Below, piece after piece: positions 5,014-60,227 of a stretch of 61,380 nt of DNA; position 1 is the stretch's first letter; each line of letters opens with the position of its first letter. The DNA lies in contig PLYJ01000033.1 in assembly GCA_003151745.1 (NCBI GenBank), positions 1 through 61,380 on the forward strand. Direction: 5' to 3'. The DNA is from Bacteroidota bacterium. Its GTDB lineage: Bacteria > Bacteroidota > Bacteroidia > AKYH767-A > 2013-40CM-41-45. The notes beneath the pieces are model-generated. The model made no database searches. It was not told where the DNA came from and saw only the letters and a list, made by a program, of their open reading frames with translations. The translations under genes were made by a program, and so were the position numbers.

Positions 5014-5505
5014 GTTCAAAGTTCAAAGTTATTCAGTTCAATGTTTAGTTATGGCTGGCTGTGATGTAATCAGGTGCATCCTCTTTAAATTTACTTCCCT
5101 TCATTTCTGAGTTTTGTAAATAACTCATCAGACCGCCAATTAATTTTGATGTTTCCGTTACGAGATGGAATATAGTATCAAATTGACTTTTGTCAATATA
5201 ATTTAAGTCTAAAGCAACATACAATTGCGCTCTTACTTCAGCCGATGATGCTTTTGCAATAGAAAGAAACTGAAGAAATTCCTTGTTACCATTTCTTTCA
5301 AAACCTTCAGCAATATTGGATAGTATTGAAATGCTTGCTCTTCTTATCTGATCCCTCAATCCGAAGTCTCTTACAAAGTTTCCGCTATTAGACACTTTAT
5401 ATATTTCAATGTTAAGCACTCTCGCCTTTTGCCAACAAACCAATTCTTCAAAACTTTTAATCGTACTCATAACATTGAACTTTGAACTGAGTAACCTTGA
5501 ACTAA
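5014..5505. mobile_element. Heptamer-repeat hairpin arms enclosing the four-helix-bundle gene
   Basis: (GTTCAAA)n arm at 5014-5045 and (TTGAACT)n arm at 5471-5505 abut the stop and start codons. Confidence 0.7.
5045..5470 (-). CDS. Four helix bundle protein (23S rRNA IVP family) inserted between sufB and sufC
   Basis: FEEL.CWQKA, LRDQIRRASISILSNIAEGFER and IAKASSAEVRAQL signature. Confidence 0.92.
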   Translation of the reverse strand: MSTIKSFEELVCWQKARVLNIEIYKVSNSGNFVRDFGLRDQIRRASISILSNIAEGFERNGNKEFLQFLSIAKASSAEVRAQLYVALDLNYIDKSQFDTIFHLVTETSKLIGGLMSYLQNSEMKGSKFKEDAPDYITASHN

Positions 5506-12582: not shown

Positions 12583-12849
12583 ATGGCACATAAGAAAGGC
12601 GTTGGTAGTTCAAGAAATGGACGCGAATCTCACAGCAAAAGATTGGGCATAAAAATATTCGGCGGACAAAAAGTAGTTGCCGGAAACATTATCGTTCGCC
12701 AACGCGGCACCAAGCATCACCCGGGTGATAACGTAGGCATTGGAAAAGACCATACGCTTTTTTCATTGATTAACGGAGTGGTTGTTTTCAAAAAGAAAGC
12801 AAACGACAAGACCCACGTTTCAGTTCTTCCTGTTCAGGCAGAAGCTTAA
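12583..12849 (+). CDS. rpmA: 50S ribosomal protein L27
   Basis: [16 protein letters not shown]. Confidence 0.98.
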
Positions 12850-12912: not shown

Positions 12913-12993
12913 GAACGCGGATTTTTATGATGGTTATGCTTTACGCTGATAAAAAATCATACTGTATCTTAATCATCATAAAAATCCGCGTTC
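12913..12993. repeat. 81-bp palindromic element, GAACGCGG family
   Basis: gaacgcggatttttatgatg ... catcataaaaatccgcgttc. Confidence 0.93.
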
Positions 12994-12995
12994 TA

Positions 12996-15098
12996 TTATC
13001 TTACAGTACCACCATTGTCAATAACCTTGGTGGGAGCAACAAAAGCTAATTCACCATTTGCATTCTCCGCCATCAATATCATGCCTTGCGATTCAATGCC
13101 TTTAATTTTTCGTGGTTCAAGGTTTACTAAAATGCTCACCTGCTGACCAATTATTTTCTCAGGTTCATAAAAAGCGGCAATGCCTGAAACAACAATACGT
13201 TTGTCAATGCCTGTATCAATAGTCAACTTTAAAAGCTTATCCGTTTTCGGAACACGCTCAGCAGCGAGAATGGTTCCAATGCGAATATCCATTTTTGAAA
13301 ACTCATCAAACGTAGTGCTGGACTTCGCGCTTGCTTCGGCGGGGGGTGCATTTGATGCGGCATTTGTTGGTTCGGATTGATTCAGGGTTTTAGAGGAATT
13401 AAGTTTTTGAATTTGTTTTTCAATGACGTCGTCTTCCACTTTTTCAAATAGTAATGCAGGAGTGCCAAGCTGATGACCGGGTTTAAGCACCTGTCCCTCC
13501 AAATGAGTCCATTGCATTTTTTCGATGTTGAGCATCTTAAGAATATTGGCTGAAGTATCTGGTAAAAACGGCTCAGCGAGAACAGCTAAGTAAGCCGTGA
13601 TCTCCAATGACATATATAGAATAGTAGCAACACGATCAGGATCTGTTTTAACTAGCTTCCAGGGTTCCGTATCGGCAAGATATTTATTTCCTGTGCGGGC
13701 CAAATCAATCAGTTCTGCCAATGCTTCACGAAAACGATATTTTTCGATGGCCTCACCGATATTTTTCTTTGCCCGCTTCATGGCAGCAACACACTCTTTT
13801 TCAAGATCGGTGGCGTTGCCATGTTGCGGTACCTTGCTTTCATAATAGTTCTTTGTCAGCACCAGTGTCCTGTTCACGAAGTTTCCGAAGATGGCAACCA
13901 GCTCATTATTCACTCTTGCCTGGAAATCTTTCCAGGTGAATTCACTGTCCTTTGTTTCCGGTGCAATCGAAGTGAGCACGTAACGCAATTCATCCTGCTT
14001 GTTCGGAAACGCTTCCAAATATTCATGCAGCCAAACAGCCCAGTTGCGTGAAGTGGAAATTTTATCTCCTTCCAGATTCAGAAACTCATTAGCCGGAACA
14101 TTTTCCGGTAAAATAAATTCTCCTTCTGCCTTAAGCATGGCGGGAAAAATGAGGCAATGAAAAACAATATTATCCTTCCCTATAAAATGAATCAACTTAG
14201 TTTCAGGATCGCACCAATAGTTTTTCCATTGCTCTTTAAATTTCGGATTTCGTCCCGCACGTGCGGGATCGGATTTCGGATTTTTTTCAAATAATGCTTT
14301 TGTTGCAGATATATAACCAATAGGTGCATCAAACCAGACATATAGCACCTTGCCCTTTGCATCAGGCAATGGAACAGGAACGCCCCAATCAAGATCGCGC
14401 GTTACGGCTCTTGGCTGCAAGCCCTGATCTAACCAGGATTTACATTGTCCCAATACATTATTCTTCCACTCTCCTTCCTTGCTTCTTATCCATTTGTCAA
14501 GCCACTCGTTCTGCATTTTATCAAGAGGCAGATACCAGTGTTTTGTTTTCTTTAATATCGGCGGCTTTCCGCTAAGCTGTGAATGAGGATTAATAAGATC
14601 GCGCGGAGATAAACTCGTTCCGCATTTTTCGCATTGATCGCCGTATGCATTCGAGTTGCCGCAATTGGGACAGGTACCTACTATGTAACGATCAGCCAAA
14701 AACATTTGCGTCTCTTCATCAAAATACTGTTCACTTTCTTCTGTGATGAAAACATTTTTGTCGTACAAGGTTGTGAAAAAGGCAGAAGCTGTTTCATAAT
14801 GTATCTTATCGCTTGTGCGGTGATATATATCAAATGAAATGCCGAAGTCGGCAAAGCTCTTTTTAATGATGCCATGATATTTATCTACTACTTGCTGAGG
14901 AGTGATGCCTTCCTTCCGTGCGCGTAAAGTAATGGGCACTCCATGTTCATCCGAGCCGCAGATGAAGATTACATCTTCCCCTTTCAGACGAAGATACCGC
15001 ACAAAAATATCAGCAGGAAGATAAGCACCGGCAAGATGACCTATATGGATTGGACCGTTGGCGTATGGCAGTGCAGCGGTGACGGTGTATCGGGACAT
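12996..15098 (-). CDS. metG: Methionine--tRNA ligase
   Basis: HIGH, zinc knuckle, KISTS and a C-terminal tRNA-binding domain. Confidence 0.98.
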
Positions 15099-36963: not shown

Positions 36964-37551
36964 ATGCAAGATGTAAAGACTCCTGTTTCGGTTTATGCCG
37001 AGAGTACACCCAACCCTACTTCGATGAAGTTTGTGGCCAGTCAGTTTTTATTGCAGGAAGGCAGTGTTGAATATCCGACAAAAGAAAGTGCGGCTAACTG
37101 CCCGTTGGCTGTTCAGTTATTCAGCTTTACGGGAGTGAGCAGCGTTTTTATCACCAGCAACTTTGTTACTATCAACAAGACACCTGATATTGACTGGTAC
37201 GACATCACGAACATTCTGCGTGAATTCATCAAAGGATATATACAGTCAGGAGAAAAGATTTTCATTGGTCCGCTGGAGCAAAAGGCTGACCTAACAGTAG
37301 AGCATACTTTTAGTTCGTCCAAAGTAGAAAGCAAGATCATTGAAATGCTGGATGAATATGTAAGACCTGCAGTGGAAGGAGATGGCGGCGCCATTCATTT
37401 TAAATCATTCAATGAAGGTGTGGTAACACTAACGCTAAAAGGTTCGTGCAGCGGTTGCCCAAGTTCAACCGTTACTTTGAAAAACGGCATTGAAAACTTG
37501 CTTAAGAAGATGATTCCTGAAGTGACTGAAGTGGTTGCAGAAGGAGAATAG
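36964..37551 (+). CDS. nfuA: NifU/NfuA family Fe-S carrier
   Basis: ESTPNP and GSCSGCPSS. Confidence 0.9.
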   Translation: MQDVKTPVSVYAESTPNPTSMKFVASQFLLQEGSVEYPTKESAANCPLAVQLFSFTGVSSVFITSNFVTINKTPDIDWYDITNILREFIKGYIQSGEKIFIGPLEQKADLTVEHTFSSSKVESKIIEMLDEYVRPAVEGDGGAIHFKSFNEGVVTLTLKGSCSGCPSSTVTLKNGIENLLKKMIPEVTEVVAEGE

Positions 37552-37631
37552 AACACGTATTATTATGATGGTTATGATTTAAGCAGATTTAAAATCATAA
37601 TTGATCTTAATCATCATGAAGATTAGCGTTC
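37551..37631. repeat. 81-bp palindromic element, GAACGCGG family (diverged copy)
   Basis: Aligns with 12913-12993 at the same length and overlaps both flanking stop codons. Confidence 0.88.
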
Positions 37632-38205
37632 ACTTTTTATAAAAATTCATCTCCTTAATATACTCCCACACAGCCTCAGGCGTCATGTAATGCACATCCT
37701 TTTTGTCTTTGATAGCATTGCGAATAAAGCTGGCTGAGATTTCCATCAACGGTGCATCTACCACTTTTACATTTTTATGATGCAGTAAGTTGCCACCTGT
37801 ACTTCCTTTGCGCGGATATACATATAGTTCATGCTCAGCTAAAATCTGCTCGTAATTTTTCCACTTGTGAAAAGTATCCAGGTTGTCGCTGCCGAGAATA
37901 AGTGCAAACGTATGTTGCGGAAACTTTTCTTTCAGATGAGCAAGTGTGGTAACCGTATAGCTTGGTTGCGGCAATTTGAATTCAATGTTGCTTGCTTTTA
38001 GTTTTCTATAATAACCAACAGCATGCCTCACTAAAGCAAGGCGATGGACATCGGGGAGCAGTGTGGCCTTCGGCTTCAACGGGTTTTGCGGTGACACGAC
38101 CAACCACACCTGTTCAAGATCAGTAAACTCAGCCATGTACTGTGCAATCACCATGTGACCGTTATGCACAGGATTGAATGAGCCGAAGAAAAGACCGATC
38201 TTCAT
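37630..38205 (-). CDS. nadD: Nicotinate-nucleotide adenylyltransferase
   Basis: GSFNPVHNGH and ISASFIR. Confidence 0.96.
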   Translation of the reverse strand: MKIGLFFGSFNPVHNGHMVIAQYMAEFTDLEQVWLVVSPQNPLKPKATLLPDVHRLALVRHAVGYYRKLKASNIEFKLPQPSYTVTTLAHLKEKFPQHTFALILGSDNLDTFHKWKNYEQILAEHELYVYPRKGSTGGNLLHHKNVKVVDAPLMEISASFIRNAIKDKKDVHYMTPEAVWEYIKEMNFYKK

Positions 38206-56997: not shown

Positions 56998-57507
56998 ATG
57001 AATACATTCGACATCATCGTTATCATTCTGCTGCTTGTCGGCGCAGTGCGCGGCTTCATGAAAGGCTTTGTGTATGAAATAGCAACGCTTGGCTCGCTTT
57101 TTCTTGGAATATTCGTCGCGTTTAAGCTGGCATACCTTGCCCAACCTACGCTTCGCAAGATCGGAAATATGGATCCGCATTTACTGGCAGTCCTTTCATT
57201 TATATTAATGTTCCTGGCTGTGGTTGTTGGCATGTATTTTCTGGCTAAGCTGTTTACATCCCTTATTGATAAAGCAGGGCTTGGTATTTTTAATAAGCTG
57301 ATGGGCGCATTGTTCGGCATATTGAAGTTTGCATTCATCATCAGCATACTCATTTATTTCTTTAACCACTTCAACGAAAAGCATCATTACGTTTCGCAGG
57401 AGAAGAAATCAATGTCAAAACTATATCAACCCATTGCTGATATTGCGCCTGCCATATTACCTGTGCTGAAAGAGGCAAGAGAAAAAGTGGAAAAGAAATT
57501 AGAGTAA
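56998..57507 (+). CDS. cvpA: CvpA family membrane protein
   Basis: RGFMKGFVYE and NKLMGALFG. Confidence 0.88.
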   Translation: MNTFDIIVIILLLVGAVRGFMKGFVYEIATLGSLFLGIFVAFKLAYLAQPTLRKIGNMDPHLLAVLSFILMFLAVVVGMYFLAKLFTSLIDKAGLGIFNKLMGALFGILKFAFIISILIYFFNHFNEKHHYVSQEKKSMSKLYQPIADIAPAILPVLKEAREKVEKKLE

Positions 57508-57513
57508 GAGGAA

Positions 57514-58179
57514 ATGAAGAAGTACGCAATCATCGTGGCAGGAGGCAGTGGAACACGTATGTCCTCAAAATTGCCAAAGCAATTTATGAAGGTTGCTGGC
57601 AAACCTTTGCTTATGCATACCATTCAGCGTTTTTATGAAGCAGACAAGTCTGCTTTAATTATAGTTGTCCTTCCAAAGGAATATATAAAGGAATGGGATA
57701 AGTTGATTCATAAATTTAAAAGTCTTATCCCTCATGTAGTTATTGAAGGAGGCAGCACGCGTTTTCAATCTGTGAAAAACGGATTATCGCTTGTAAAAGA
57801 GAAGGGCATTGTAGCCGTGCATGATGGTGTGCGCCCGCTGGCAAGCAAGGCGCTCATCAATAAATGTTTTAATGAAGCAAATAAAAAAGGCAACGCTATT
57901 CCTGCTATTCCTTTAAATGAATCTTTGAGGAAGACTTCAGGAGGAAGAAGCGAAGTCGTTGATCGCTCCTCCTACTCTATCATCCAAACGCCGCAATGCT
58001 TTCTTTCTGAAATTATATTAAAAGCGTATCAGCAACGTTTCAAAAAATCATTTACTGATGATGCAACAGTAGTTGAGAGCATTGGTAAAAAAATTCACCT
58101 CGTTGAAGGCGAGCGAGAAAACATCAAGATCACCTTTTCTGTTGATCTTAAAATAGCGGAACTGTTTTTAAAGAAATAA
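57514..58179 (+). CDS. ispD: 2-C-methyl-D-erythritol 4-phosphate cytidylyltransferase
   Basis: AGGSGTRM, PKQF, HDGVRP, QTPQ and NIKIT. Confidence 0.96.
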   Translation: MKKYAIIVAGGSGTRMSSKLPKQFMKVAGKPLLMHTIQRFYEADKSALIIVVLPKEYIKEWDKLIHKFKSLIPHVVIEGGSTRFQSVKNGLSLVKEKGIVAVHDGVRPLASKALINKCFNEANKKGNAIPAIPLNESLRKTSGGRSEVVDRSSYSIIQTPQCFLSEIILKAYQQRFKKSFTDDATVVESIGKKIHLVEGERENIKITFSVDLKIAELFLKK

Positions 58180-58182
58180 ATG

Positions 58183-58263
58183 GAACGCGGATTTTCATGA
58201 TGGTTATGATTTACGCGGATAAGAAATCATAATTTATCATAATCATCATAAAAATCCGCGTTC
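58183..58263. repeat. 81-bp palindromic element, GAACGCGG family
   Basis: Close match to 12913-12993. Confidence 0.93.
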
Positions 58264-58299
58264 AATCTTTCCTGAATCACGACATCGATGATCTTGATT

Positions 58300-58646
58300 T
58301 TTTAAGTTTTTTATATTCAGAAGCATGCCAACTTCAATTTCTGTTGCCTTGAGGTAATTGATTAGCTGGGCTTCATGTGGCTCGCAAAGTGCCTCCGCAG
58401 CTTTTACTTCAATAATGACACAATTATTTAAATTATATCTGCAACATAAAATCTAACCTCAGCATCTGCATAATAAACTTTGATTTGCTGTTACGCTAAA
58501 ACAAGAAGTCCCAGGTTTCGCAATTCAATAACTAATGCATTCTCATAAACCTTCTCCAAAAAACCATATCCCAACGTGTTATACACATTGTAATATGCTT
58601 TAATAATCAAATCCGTAATTTCTGAATGAACAAAATTATATTTCAT
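58300..58646 (-). pseudogene. GxxExxY (PD-(D/E)xK-like) protein pseudogene, absent from the ORF track
   Basis: Manual translation: MKYNFVHSEITDLIIKAYYNVYNTLGYGFLEKVYENAL...*...ADII / NNCVIIEVKAAEALCEPHEAQLINYLKATEIEVGMLLN. Stop at 58491-58493, frameshift near 58430. Confidence 0.9.
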
Positions 58647-58649
58647 AAC

Positions 58650-58679
58650 AAATCATAATCATCATGAAAATCCGCGTTC
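58650..58679. repeat. Half GAACGCGG element just before the GxxExxY start codon
   Basis: Minus strand reads gaacgcggattttcatgatgattatgattt-gtt-ATG. Confidence 0.9.
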
Positions 58680-58692
58680 TATTTTTTTAGAA

Positions 58693-59574
58693 TCACGATT
58701 CAGATCTTTTGATGATTGGCAATACTCCCGCCATTTCACCGATCACGTTAATTAATTCCTTATCAGAGGGAACAATGATCTTGGAGTTATTACTAAGAGC
58801 TGTTTCCAGCGCCTCCAGCTTGCGGAGGGTTTGTGCATTACCTACAAAATACTTTTCAGCCGCTTCATTCACGAGGGCAATTGCCTGAGCTTCACCTTCT
58901 GCTTCCAATATCTTTGCCTGGCGGATACCTTCCGCTTTCTTGATCTCTGCACGCTTTTCTCCGTCAGCTCGGGTTTCAACAGCAGTTGCAAAATCAACGG
59001 CAGCGACTTTTTCATTTTCCGCCTTCACAATTTTATTCATTGTTTCCTGCACATCCTTGGGAGGATCTATTTCCTTCAATTCCGTACGCACGATTTCCAC
59101 ACCCCAGCCGGCAGTTTCCTCAATCAACGTGGTATATAAGTTTTTATTTATCCTGCCGCGCTCGCTGTTGGCGCTTTTCAGCGTCATGGTGCCGATGATG
59201 TTGCGTAGCGTAGTGCGCGCCAGGTTCACAATCTGGTAGTTGATGATGTTTACGTTGTACTGTGAATTCTTCACGCTCTCCTCGTCAGGACGGATTTTAA
59301 AATACACCTGTGCATCCACGCTGGCATTCAGATTATCGTTGGTGATGATTTCCTGTTTTTCGGCATTGATCATCTGCTCGGTAGTATTGATCTGGTACAT
59401 GCGGTCAATGAAAGGAATGATCCAGTGAAAGCCGGGTTCAGCATAATGATGGTATTTTCCTAAGCGCTCAATCAAGGCGCGATGCGTGGGGCGCACAATG
59501 CGCGCGCCAAGAAAGAATAAAACGATAAGCCCGATAATGATTGGGGTTATTCCAAGTGTTGTTTGAGAATCCAT
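58693..59574 (-). CDS. SPFH / band 7 domain protein
   Basis: N-terminal TM segment, ERLGKY..PG, ARTTLRNIIG and AE-rich coiled coil. Confidence 0.93.
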   Translation of the reverse strand: MDSQTTLGITPIIIGLIVLFFLGARIVRPTHRALIERLGKYHHYAEPGFHWIIPFIDRMYQINTTEQMINAEKQEIITNDNLNASVDAQVYFKIRPDEESVKNSQYNVNIINYQIVNLARTTLRNIIGTMTLKSANSERGRINKNLYTTLIEETAGWGVEIVRTELKEIDPPKDVQETMNKIVKAENEKVAAVDFATAVETRADGEKRAEIKKAEGIRQAKILEAEGEAQAIALVNEAAEKYFVGNAQTLRKLEALETALSNNSKIIVPSDKELINVIGEMAGVLPIIKRSES

Positions 59575-59694
59575 AGTGAATTGTTTTTTGTAAATGTAGG
59601 ATAAATTTTAAGAGTCAAAGATCAGTCGTGTAAATAGAAAAAATCCTGATACAGTATAAACAGATATCAGGACGTGATTTCACAAACGCTATGT

Positions 59695-59955
59695 TTATGA
59701 ATAATGTCCATGACAAGATACAATAGTAATATTTTCGTCGGTGATTTTATATATAAGACGATGCTCGTCTGTGATTCTTCGACTCCAATAACCCTTCCAA
59801 TTTCCTTTGAGGGGTTCAGGCTTTCCGATGCCTTTAAAAGGATCACGCGAAATATCTATTATGAGTTCATTGATTTTACCAAACACTTTTTTGTTTTGCG
59901 TACTCCACTCCACATAATCCTTAAATGCGGTGGGGAAAAAGAGAACTGATCTCAT
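59695..59955 (-). CDS. yoeB: Txe/YoeB family toxin
   Basis: GIGKPEPLK, WSRRITDEHRL and GHY end. Confidence 0.95.
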   Translation of the reverse strand: MRSVLFFPTAFKDYVEWSTQNKKVFGKINELIIDISRDPFKGIGKPEPLKGNWKGYWSRRITDEHRLIYKITDENITIVSCHGHYS

Positions 59956-59957
59956 TC

Positions 59958-60227
59958 TTACTGTTTAGATACAGCTTTTGCAAACGCTTCAAACTCCTGT
60001 CCTGTAAATGAAATGAGATTAGCAGAACCGCTTTCAATCTCAGCAATCGCTTTATCAATACGGGCTTTGACTTGCTTAGGGGCTTCCTTCCGTAATGATG
60101 CAGATGCTTTTTTCGTTGATAGATTTATACTGATATTATTAAAGCCTTTTGTTTTTATTAGATTTCGCAACATCTCAAGAACATGCTCATTTAATTCATT
60201 TGGCTTTAATGTGATGGTCGTTTCCAT
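59958..60227 (-). CDS. Putative antitoxin
   Basis: 89 aa, ending 2 bp before yoeB. Confidence 0.65.
   Translation of the reverse strand: METTITLKPNELNEHVLEMLRNLIKTKGFNNISINLSTKKASASLRKEAPKQVKARIDKAIAEIESGSANLISFTGQEFEAFAKAVSKQ

Follow-up and report, generated by a model that had tools for sequence, protein, structure and literature searches.

A dead GxxExxY nuclease gene and its hairpin repeats as a candidate selfish cassette in a Bacteroidota genome

The 23S intervening sequence (IVS) of Coxiella is a 428-nt insert that has been called a "selfish genetic element," and it carries an open reading frame (ORF) for a four-helix S23p protein and closes in a 28-bp terminal inverted-repeat stem (PMC4990558). 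According to the portions of that account available to us, tandem GACAGAT heptamers lie upstream of the ORF, RNase III excises the element, and the ORF decays. The same portions recall an old idea that the ORF once had a role in mobility, and they present the origin of ORF-bearing 23S IVSs as a question open for more than 25 years (PMC4990558). A second described design pairs hairpin doublets of repetitive extragenic palindromic (REP) sequences, or REPINs, with REP-associated tyrosine transposases (RAYTs). Here we compare with these systems a locus in a 61,380-nt stretch of Bacteroidota DNA (contig PLYJ01000033.1 of assembly GCA_003151745.1; hereafter the window). At this locus, a complete 81-bp hairpin, a broken gene of the GxxExxY family of PD-(D/E)xK nucleases, and a separate hairpin arm lie between the ispD gene and a Band7 gene.

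The function of the GxxExxY family, also named PDDEXK_3, is given as "Unknown" in the part of the published survey available to us (PMC3424549). We consider it somewhat better than an even bet, at roughly 55%, that the window locus is a dead copy of a compact selfish cassette, whose intact nuclease is proposed to move the cassette and, in trans, the hairpins. Sequence comparison establishes the architecture of this element and its generality. It further shows that arm motifs match gene clades in several phyla, that gene-less hairpins are associated with the gene, and that the element is present at this site in a lineage-specific manner.

The broken gene, its arms and its hairpins

The cassette and the hairpin next to it are enclosed by convergent ispD (PF01128, 57514-58179, +) and Band7/SPFH (PF01145, 58693-59574, -) genes, with the GxxExxY gene on the minus strand between the hairpin and Band7 (Table 1). 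Codons 1-51 of this gene match PF13366 (E 6.2e-12), and codons 9-48 score 46.3 bits where the cut-off is 22. The in-frame TAA comes after codon 51, and the remainder of the domain lies in a second frame, the two frames scoring 60 and 47.6 bits. Aligned with an intact ortholog, the two pieces are 68% and 76% identical, and about 16 codons are absent from the 3' end by comparison with intact orthologs. The motifs GFLEKVY, ADII, and IIEVK are still legible in a frame that is no longer intact. Judged by these lesions, the window gene is dead, a pseudogene of the PF13366 family. Because the nuclease is broken in this genome, its hairpin family is probably immobile and decaying. PF13366 is the only family that the window gene matches, and no Y1 (HUH) transposase of the IS200-like type was found in it. 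The analogy with RAYT and REP that the original prediction drew is apt for the layout but does not extend to family membership, because this gene has a PD-(D/E)xK core.

The half element that had been expected to end 3 nt before the ATG is found there, and together with its flank (to 58688) it pairs at 36/39 positions with 58174-58212. On the far side of the gene, a decayed opposite arm had been proposed at about 58270-58300. The sequence at 58272-58302 occupies the position of the arm in orthologs, but its score against an intact arm (9.0) rises no higher than the 95th percentile of a set of 1000 random windows, and it is a possible decayed opposite arm. A GAATCACGA repeat after both arms was first taken for a long direct duplication with the 3' end of the Band7 gene inside it. 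That reading was dropped in favor of decayed arm copies, which these repeats may represent.

Intact relatives of the broken protein score 112-140 bits against TIGR04256 (cut-off 35). Ten diverse aligned proteins share the invariant residues G26, G28, E31, and Y34 (GxxExxY), D70, E80, and K82 (D...ExK), and Q94 and Y98. The AlphaFold model is confident, with a mean predicted local distance difference test (pLDDT) of 91.6. Its closest solved folds are Cas4 SSO0001, a Spirosoma restriction-endonuclease-like protein, and lambda-type exonucleases, all of them weak matches (best E 1.2e-3, TM ~0.5). Nothing in the fold search reached E <= 0.001, only generic PD-(D/E)xK cores being returned, and a search of PDB sequences with the family profile gave 0 matches. 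As modeled, the GxxExxY protein is a minimal PD-(D/E)xK core of ~130 aa.

Each of the three hairpins in the window is exactly 81 bp long and lies between convergent genes, as originally predicted, and the three can be aligned with one another (nhmmer E 1e-20 to 9e-24). The copy beside the pseudogene (58183-58263; nhmmer E 8.7e-24) has a minimum free energy (MFE) of -38.0 kcal/mol (z = -9.0), and the copies starting at 12913 and 37551 have MFEs of -37.2 kcal/mol (z = -10.5) and -22.1 kcal/mol (z = -4.0). None of 200 shuffles folded as well as any of the three. The terminus ATAGAAC...GTTCTAT is palindromic and provides TAG stops on the two strands alike, and both genes around the 37551 copy terminate within its ends. 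In a related genome (G017, locus L014), the stop of the dioxygenase gene lies inside the arm. By eye, the neighbors of the 12913 copy resemble ribosomal protein L27 and methionyl-tRNA synthetase. A superfamily hairpin likewise stands directly after the stop of a methionyl-tRNA-synthetase-like gene in another related genome (G012, C18:2183-2265). The two post-stop hairpins differ in flavor (GACGCGGAAA-type in G012, TTATGAT-type in the window), and they could be one old copy that has drifted or repeat hits at one site.

The genome that contains the window (279 contigs, 4.6 Mb, 40% G+C) holds 19 full copies (78-82 bp) and 2 partial copies of this hairpin by nhmmer. No ORF of at least 100 aa overlaps any of the 19. 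Nine lie between convergent genes, nine between tandem genes, and one at a contig end. Mean column identity among them is 85%, and their differences are largely uncompensated, as expected of decaying copies. Rfam 15 gave no match at its gathering score, only microRNA-precursor look-alikes at 21-34 bits against cut-offs of 58-140.

Arm motifs, gene clades and hairpins across genomes

Intact orthologs of the window pseudogene in related genera are 63-69% identical to one another, and each is found between arms of the same family. Likewise, such arms flank all 8 further clade genes retrieved from genomes of the window's own family. Among the orthologs, arm termini vary in matched pairs: GAACGCGGAT/ATCTGCGTTC in G012, GACCGCAGAT/ATCTGCGGTC in G017, and GAACGCTGAT/ATCAGCGTTC in G015. 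A scan for this clade (clade 1) over one genome per species yielded 578 relatives, and we used the best 80 loci (59-76% identity), which come mostly from Bacteroidota and Ignavibacteriota. Other contigs among them are labeled Planctomycetaceae, Desulfobacterales, Geobacter, Gammaproteobacteria, Methylococcaceae, Nitrospirae, Armatimonadota, and Cloacimonadota, labels that can err for metagenome-assembled genomes.

The best flanking inverted repeat of clade-1 loci has a median score of 16, versus 8 in controls. The 95th percentile of 284 shifted-window controls is exceeded by 67/79 loci and the control maximum by 51/79. Under a stricter control, the flanks of 114 neighbor genes, 60/78 loci surpass the 95th percentile (11.5), and two of these neighbor-gene controls scored high themselves (16.5 and 22.5). 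The terminus (AATA)GAACRCRGAT is common to clade-1 arms in Bacteroidota, Ignavibacteriota, and contigs labeled Planctomycetaceae, Desulfobacterales, Geobacter, Gammaproteobacteria, and Nitrospirae. This sharing, at a protein identity of just 59-76%, implies selection on the arms. The internal period of roughly 9 bp that had been read from the window is clear in the arms of other genomes (identity 0.46 at lag 9 and 0.36 at lag 18, against a baseline of ~0.25) but is blurred in this genome's copies, where base identity is 0.36-0.39 at lags 3, 6, and 9. The filling of the subrepeats tracks host composition, being TTATGAT in A+T-rich hosts and GACGCGGAT in G+C-rich ones.

A second clade, queried with the intact gene on contig C192, yielded 30 loci in a 301-genome sample of the phylum, and 25 of these exceed the 95th percentile of 116 controls. 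Clade-2 arms end in TGTCTGAAYYNGGATT and contain AGGATT subrepeats, so their terminus is distinct from that of clade 1. The window genome alone has seven GxxExxY loci, all of them between inverted, periodically repeated arms that belong to four different families. Six are intact by ORF length, although in one of the six (on contig C69) a TAA interrupts the domain match. Gene clade and arm motif are thus paired in the sequences compared, with several pairs per cell. The coexistence of four arm families and four gene clades in one genome argues that specificity is carried by the element and not by the host. Additionally, arms that are clade-specific, that are conserved at ~60% protein identity, and that occur as several pairs per genome are arguments for a protein that reads the arms of its own cassette.

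The arrangement is not restricted to nucleases. All 5 four-helix-bundle (PF05635) genes of this genome lie between inverted periodic arms, in support of the predicted general system of gene-in-a-hairpin cassettes. Strict patterns for gene-less hairpins recovered 19, 2, 0, and 1 copies for the arm families of GxxExxY clades 1 to 4. For the four-helix families they recovered 19 copies of the window type (arm motif AGTTCAARGTT) and 1 and 2 copies of two others, and the reversed-pattern controls gave 0.

Hairpins should track the gene across genomes if the two belong together, and the original prediction was exposed to failure both here and in the arms of intact paralogs. It survived in both places, with arms present at 6/6 intact paralogs in this genome. 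For hairpins, we used a flavor-independent pattern (GAACRCNGAT-N40-70-ATCNGYGTTC), whose reversed control gave 0 in all 54 genomes of a family sample and in all 301 of the phylum sample. In the family sample, hairpins occur in 12 genomes by this pattern and in 9 by a covariance model of this genome's copies. The clade gene, defined there by at least 55% identity, occurs in 11 genomes and is broken in two, this one included. At least one hairpin was found in 8/11 gene-bearing but only 4/43 gene-free genomes (Fisher p 6e-5). Among the 300 other genomes of the phylum sample, 35 have the gene (E <= 1e-35) and 38 have hairpins, which are present in 19/35 gene-bearing versus 19/265 gene-free genomes (odds ratio 15, p 9e-11). 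Both p-values overstate the association because related genomes are not independent. The 19 genomes with both gene and hairpins are spread over 9 families. In a few (e.g., G187) the sole hairpin adjoins the cassette, and one genome (G198) has 18 hairpins with no full gene and two truncated remnants.

Comparison of orthologous sites bears on gain and loss of such elements. In all six relatives that retain ispD beside Band7, the two genes are 38-151 nt apart, and the spacer has ordinary small stems but neither a GxxExxY gene nor a hairpin of the window's family. The cassette and hairpin at this site are therefore lineage-specific. In G012 and G017, the cassette lies between 3-hydroxyanthranilate dioxygenase and amidohydrolase genes and is codirectional with both. 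Congeners have none at that junction, which measures 96 nt with a different hairpin in G004 and 66-70 nt in G023, G010, and G002. The comparison indicates gain or loss, short of a clean empty-site junction. In four genomes of one related genus (G059, G021, G015, G060; loci L168-L172), the same junction consists of 450-730 nt of other repeat families, with GGCCCCC..GGGGG stems, ATTCGTACTTCGTA runs, and no cassette gene. At one of these loci, L169, the sole reading frames are two short ones (77 and 86 aa) that derive from repeats. By its sequences, this is a site that collects repeats, and it is not present in the window genome. The junctions of the window hairpins at 12913 and 37551 were not syntenic in the five hairpin-bearing relatives searched. 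In contigs from four metagenome runs of four studies, compared over 57400-59700, the arrangement of the window locus is unchanged (e.g., 58142-58636, 0 differences).

An unbiased scan of the genome for inverted repeats (spacers 200-1500 nt) returned 116 loci. Many ordinary genes look enclosed in such a scan because hairpins occupy both of their adjoining intergenic regions. The scan also caught small genes that by eye resemble IS200/RAYT, GIY-YIG, and EVE genes, each with its own arms, and the inverted arms of the IS200/RAYT-like genes are unrelated to GxxExxY arms. The cargo list of gene-in-hairpin cassettes may therefore be longer than GxxExxY and four-helix genes.

Several cassettes have settings of separate interest. 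Two clade-2 cassettes (C192:19827-20309, loci L036 and L128; C222:9022-9411, locus L037) sit in what look by eye like type I restriction-modification operons, with an HsdS-like end upstream and an HsdR-like start downstream. The final codons of the C222 host gene (..LTEEEIKIVE..) are present on either side of the cassette. A complete hairpin of the same family often stands beside or within a cassette, as in the window and at C165:5343-5899 (L038), L121 (G047:C13), G178:C1:2779260-2779814, G187:C73:24467-24953, and G138:C77:936-1408, which suggests nested or local insertion. Elsewhere in the window, 59695-60227 holds two minus-strand ORFs (59695-59955 and 59958-60227) described by eye as having overlapping ends and resembling a YoeB/Txe-type toxin-antitoxin pair.

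Table 1. Positions of hairpins, arms and cassette genes in the window, and of other small genes with arms in the same genome (contig:position)
Feature	Position	Strand	Size and remarks
Complete gene-less hairpin	58183-58263		81 bp, two 29-nt arms and a 23-nt loop; starts 3 nt past the ispD stop codon
Hairpin copy	12913-12993		81 bp; flanked by convergent 12583-12849 (+) and 12996-15098 (-)
Hairpin copy, more decayed	37551-37631		81 bp; ends overlap the stops of convergent 36964-37551 (+) and 37630-38205 (-)
GxxExxY pseudogene (PF13366/TIGR04256-type PD-(D/E)xK)	58297-58646	-	ATG 58644-58646; in-frame TAA 58491-58493; frameshift near 58431; 3' truncation
Cognate arm (half element)	58650-58679		97% identical to one hairpin arm; 3 nt from the pseudogene ATG
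Candidate decayed arm, 3' side of pseudogene	58272-58302		Position fits the arm of intact orthologs; borderline
Four-helix-bundle (PF05635) cassette	Gene 5135-5449; arms 5020-5053 and 5468-5503	-	Between sufB-like and sufC-like genes (by eye), codirectional with both
IS200/RAYT-like small genes	C58:9966-10671; C107:14477-15195; C154:19787-20530; C238:12844-13489; C34:591-1287; C187:22-547		By eye, from N-terminal sequence
GIY-YIG-like small gene	C65:12532-13095		By eye; 27-34-nt inverted arms
EVE-like small gene	C87:12037-12543		By eye; 27-34-nt inverted arms

Movement by the nuclease and rival readings

The selfish cassette that we propose would consist of one ~130-aa GxxExxY PD-(D/E)xK gene bracketed by terminal inverted repeats of 30-45 nt. 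These repeats would be composed of ~9-bp subrepeats and would close in a motif specific to the clade, which here is (AATA)GAACRCRGAT. The 81-bp hairpins would be two arms joined without the gene, and thus non-autonomous derivatives, comparable to REPINs or to miniature inverted-repeat transposable elements (MITEs), that gather at gene 3' ends. We infer that the nuclease reads the periodic repeats of the arms at the DNA level and cleaves at the termini or close to them, and that cutting moves the cassette and, in trans, the hairpins, leaving no target duplication. That the nuclease mobilizes both cassette and hairpins is a step to which these comparisons lend about even odds.

Beyond the cautions about contig labels and p-values given above, a number of observations weigh against this proposal. 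Direct repeats of 2-5 nt at offsets 0-7 around the 19 copies are no commoner than in permuted flanks, and a target-site duplication is thus absent. No joint that skips the cassette or the hairpin was found in the contigs of the four metagenome runs, the sole joint listed being derived from another hairpin copy, and there is no sign of present-day polymorphism at the locus among these runs. Hairpins matching the pattern are missing from 16/35 gene-bearing genomes of the phylum sample, and two genomes rich in hairpins (G193 with 17 and G128 with 14) have no clade gene at all. Within the window genome, the three intact GxxExxY clades carry 0-2 strict hairpins and the broken clade carries 19. The four-helix-bundle cassettes encode no nuclease, share the same design in 5/5 cases, and include one family with 19 hairpins. 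The four-helix cassettes, the hairpin-rich gene-free genomes, and the fact that no movement was seen together weaken the case for mobility by the nuclease. Finally, the cassette gene is codirectional with both neighbors at 51/61 assignable loci, each mixed pattern accounting for 5/61 and opposition to both neighbors for 0/61. This bias fits either a dependence on host transcription, as in IVSs, or orientation-specific insertion.

Codirectionality would also suit an element that lives at the RNA level, as an IVS does. Its arms would form a double-stranded stem in host transcripts that RNase III cuts, the gene-less hairpins would be terminators or 3'-end stabilizers, and the nuclease would be irrelevant to their spread. 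Cassettes do lie inside operons (dioxygenase/amidohydrolase; suf genes), and the hairpins sit at gene 3' ends, between divergent genes in 0/19 cases, with A-runs ahead of them and T-runs behind. The Coxiella IVS is alike in build, with its ORF, 28-bp terminal stem, and tandem heptamers, and it is excised by RNase III in the account available (PMC4990558). However, in the arm mismatches of 84 cassettes, G.T, which would be a G.U wobble in the sense RNA, shows no excess over A.C (136 against 167), and there is therefore no signature of selection for a sense-strand RNA stem. RNase III would not need clade-specific termini conserved across phyla, and the changes among in-genome copies are uncompensated. 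A simple terminator scan did not flag the hairpin, whose stem and loop exceed the limits of that scan. On balance, we regard an RNA-level life as rather improbable. A different mover, either a host function or the resident IS200/RAYT-like genes, would make passengers of the GxxExxY, four-helix, and other small genes, which would then have another role such as defense or addiction. This reading draws on the non-enzymatic four-helix cargo with its identical architecture and 19 hairpins, on G193 and G128, on the IS200/RAYT-like genes noted by eye, and on the clade-2 cassettes that by eye lie within restriction-modification operons. It is unlikely, and several results run counter to it. The arms of the RAYT-like genes are quite different, the arm terminus follows the gene clade, with four arm families in one host, and the odds ratio for gene and hairpin is 15-26. 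The PADLOC defense models gave no convincing match: the clade-1 protein matched 0 families, and the clade-2 protein had no more than weak matches to Cas4b (E 4.9e-4) and LmuB (E 1.4e-3).

PD-(D/E)xK and GIY-YIG folds serve homing endonucleases, and the frequent occurrence of complete hairpins beside or inside cassettes (in the window, C165, G047, G178, G187, and G138) would agree with homing. The nuclease would cut empty hairpins, and repair from a filled copy through arm homology would insert the gene, which would make the hairpins targets and not products. We consider this very unlikely, because the gene stays at one or two copies despite many empty hairpins (1 gene and 30 hairpins in G012; 2 genes and 8 hairpins in G047) and because the spread of the hairpins themselves is left unexplained. 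Chance resemblance or an assembly artifact is scarcely credible. Only the borderline decayed arm speaks for it, in the face of E-values of 1e-20 and lower, reversed-pattern controls of 0 in 54 and 301 genomes, and identical contigs in four independent runs. The selfish cassette moved by its own nuclease thus remains our preferred reading. With more reserve, we raise a broader possibility that we think doubtful as it stands. GxxExxY proteins may act as transposases, or as nucleases specific for the ends, in the smallest autonomous DNA elements known from bacteria, of ~0.5 kb with one 130-aa PD-(D/E)xK domain and periodic inverted repeats, each clade being tuned to its own arms and spawning REPIN-like hairpins. 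ORF-bearing 23S IVSs and four-helix cassettes would then fall in the same unrecognized super-class of gene-in-a-hairpin elements.

Comparison with known systems

A large cross-phylum family, GxxExxY/PDDEXK_3, is now tied to a precise candidate substrate, namely the arms on its own flanks and the dispersed hairpins that match them. Many lineages conserve this arrangement, with arm motifs specific to each clade. Should the protein act on the arms, the two would constitute a new and minimal mobile system of nuclease and repeat, a parallel to RAYT/REPIN, and one class of hairpin repeats found between genes in Bacteroidota and their neighbors would be accounted for. The pairing of gene and arms has the appearance of a very small selfish DNA element that has not been described before. 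We found no paper on GxxExxY or four-helix cassettes with arms outside rRNA in a literature search that left subscription journals and supplements aside.

Two established classes of element resemble the cassette in part. Like MITEs, the hairpins are short (~80 bp), non-coding, multi-copy, and intergenic, with two terminal inverted repeats, and they share their ends with longer gene-bearing cassettes in this and other genomes. Unlike MITEs, they have a gene-bearing partner of merely ~0.5 kb with no DDE transposase, and they lack a target-site duplication. Free-standing homing endonuclease genes also place a small nuclease gene within its presumed recognition sequence. In contrast to those genes, the gene here leaves empty sites unfilled, and its "target" is itself a dispersed repeat.

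The likeness to REPIN-RAYT systems is closer. In the descriptions available of those systems, a nuclease-type gene, usually in single copy, is flanked inversely by the sequence of dispersed gene-less hairpins, no target duplication is seen, and the gene can be lost while the repeats persist (PMC3116915, PMC2817692). The locus has the same layout, a gene between inverted copies of a dispersed repeat accompanied by gene-less hairpin doublets. The differences, as far as those descriptions go, lie in the protein, which is a ~130-aa PD-(D/E)xK domain (PF13366) here and an HUH Y1 transposase there, and in the arms, which are 30-45-nt runs of ~9-bp direct subrepeats and not small palindromes with a GTAG/CGTC head. 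Copy numbers are in the tens here, not in the hundreds.

The 23S IVSs with S23p ORFs, known from Coxiella and Leptospira, share other properties with the cassette. In the account available, they too measure ~430-550 nt, contain one small decay-prone ORF, have terminal inverted repeats with tandem short repeats just upstream, are codirectional with the host transcription unit, and are of unexplained origin (PMC4990558). The window genome also has four-helix-bundle cassettes, identical in design to its GxxExxY cassettes. The large-subunit rRNA gene was not found in this assembly. Unlike an IVS, the element at our locus lies not in rRNA but between ispD and Band7, carries a nuclease, has dispersed gene-less copies, and shows no RNA-wobble signature. 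By analogy, then, the cassette parallels RAYT/REPIN in layout and ORF-bearing IVSs in build.

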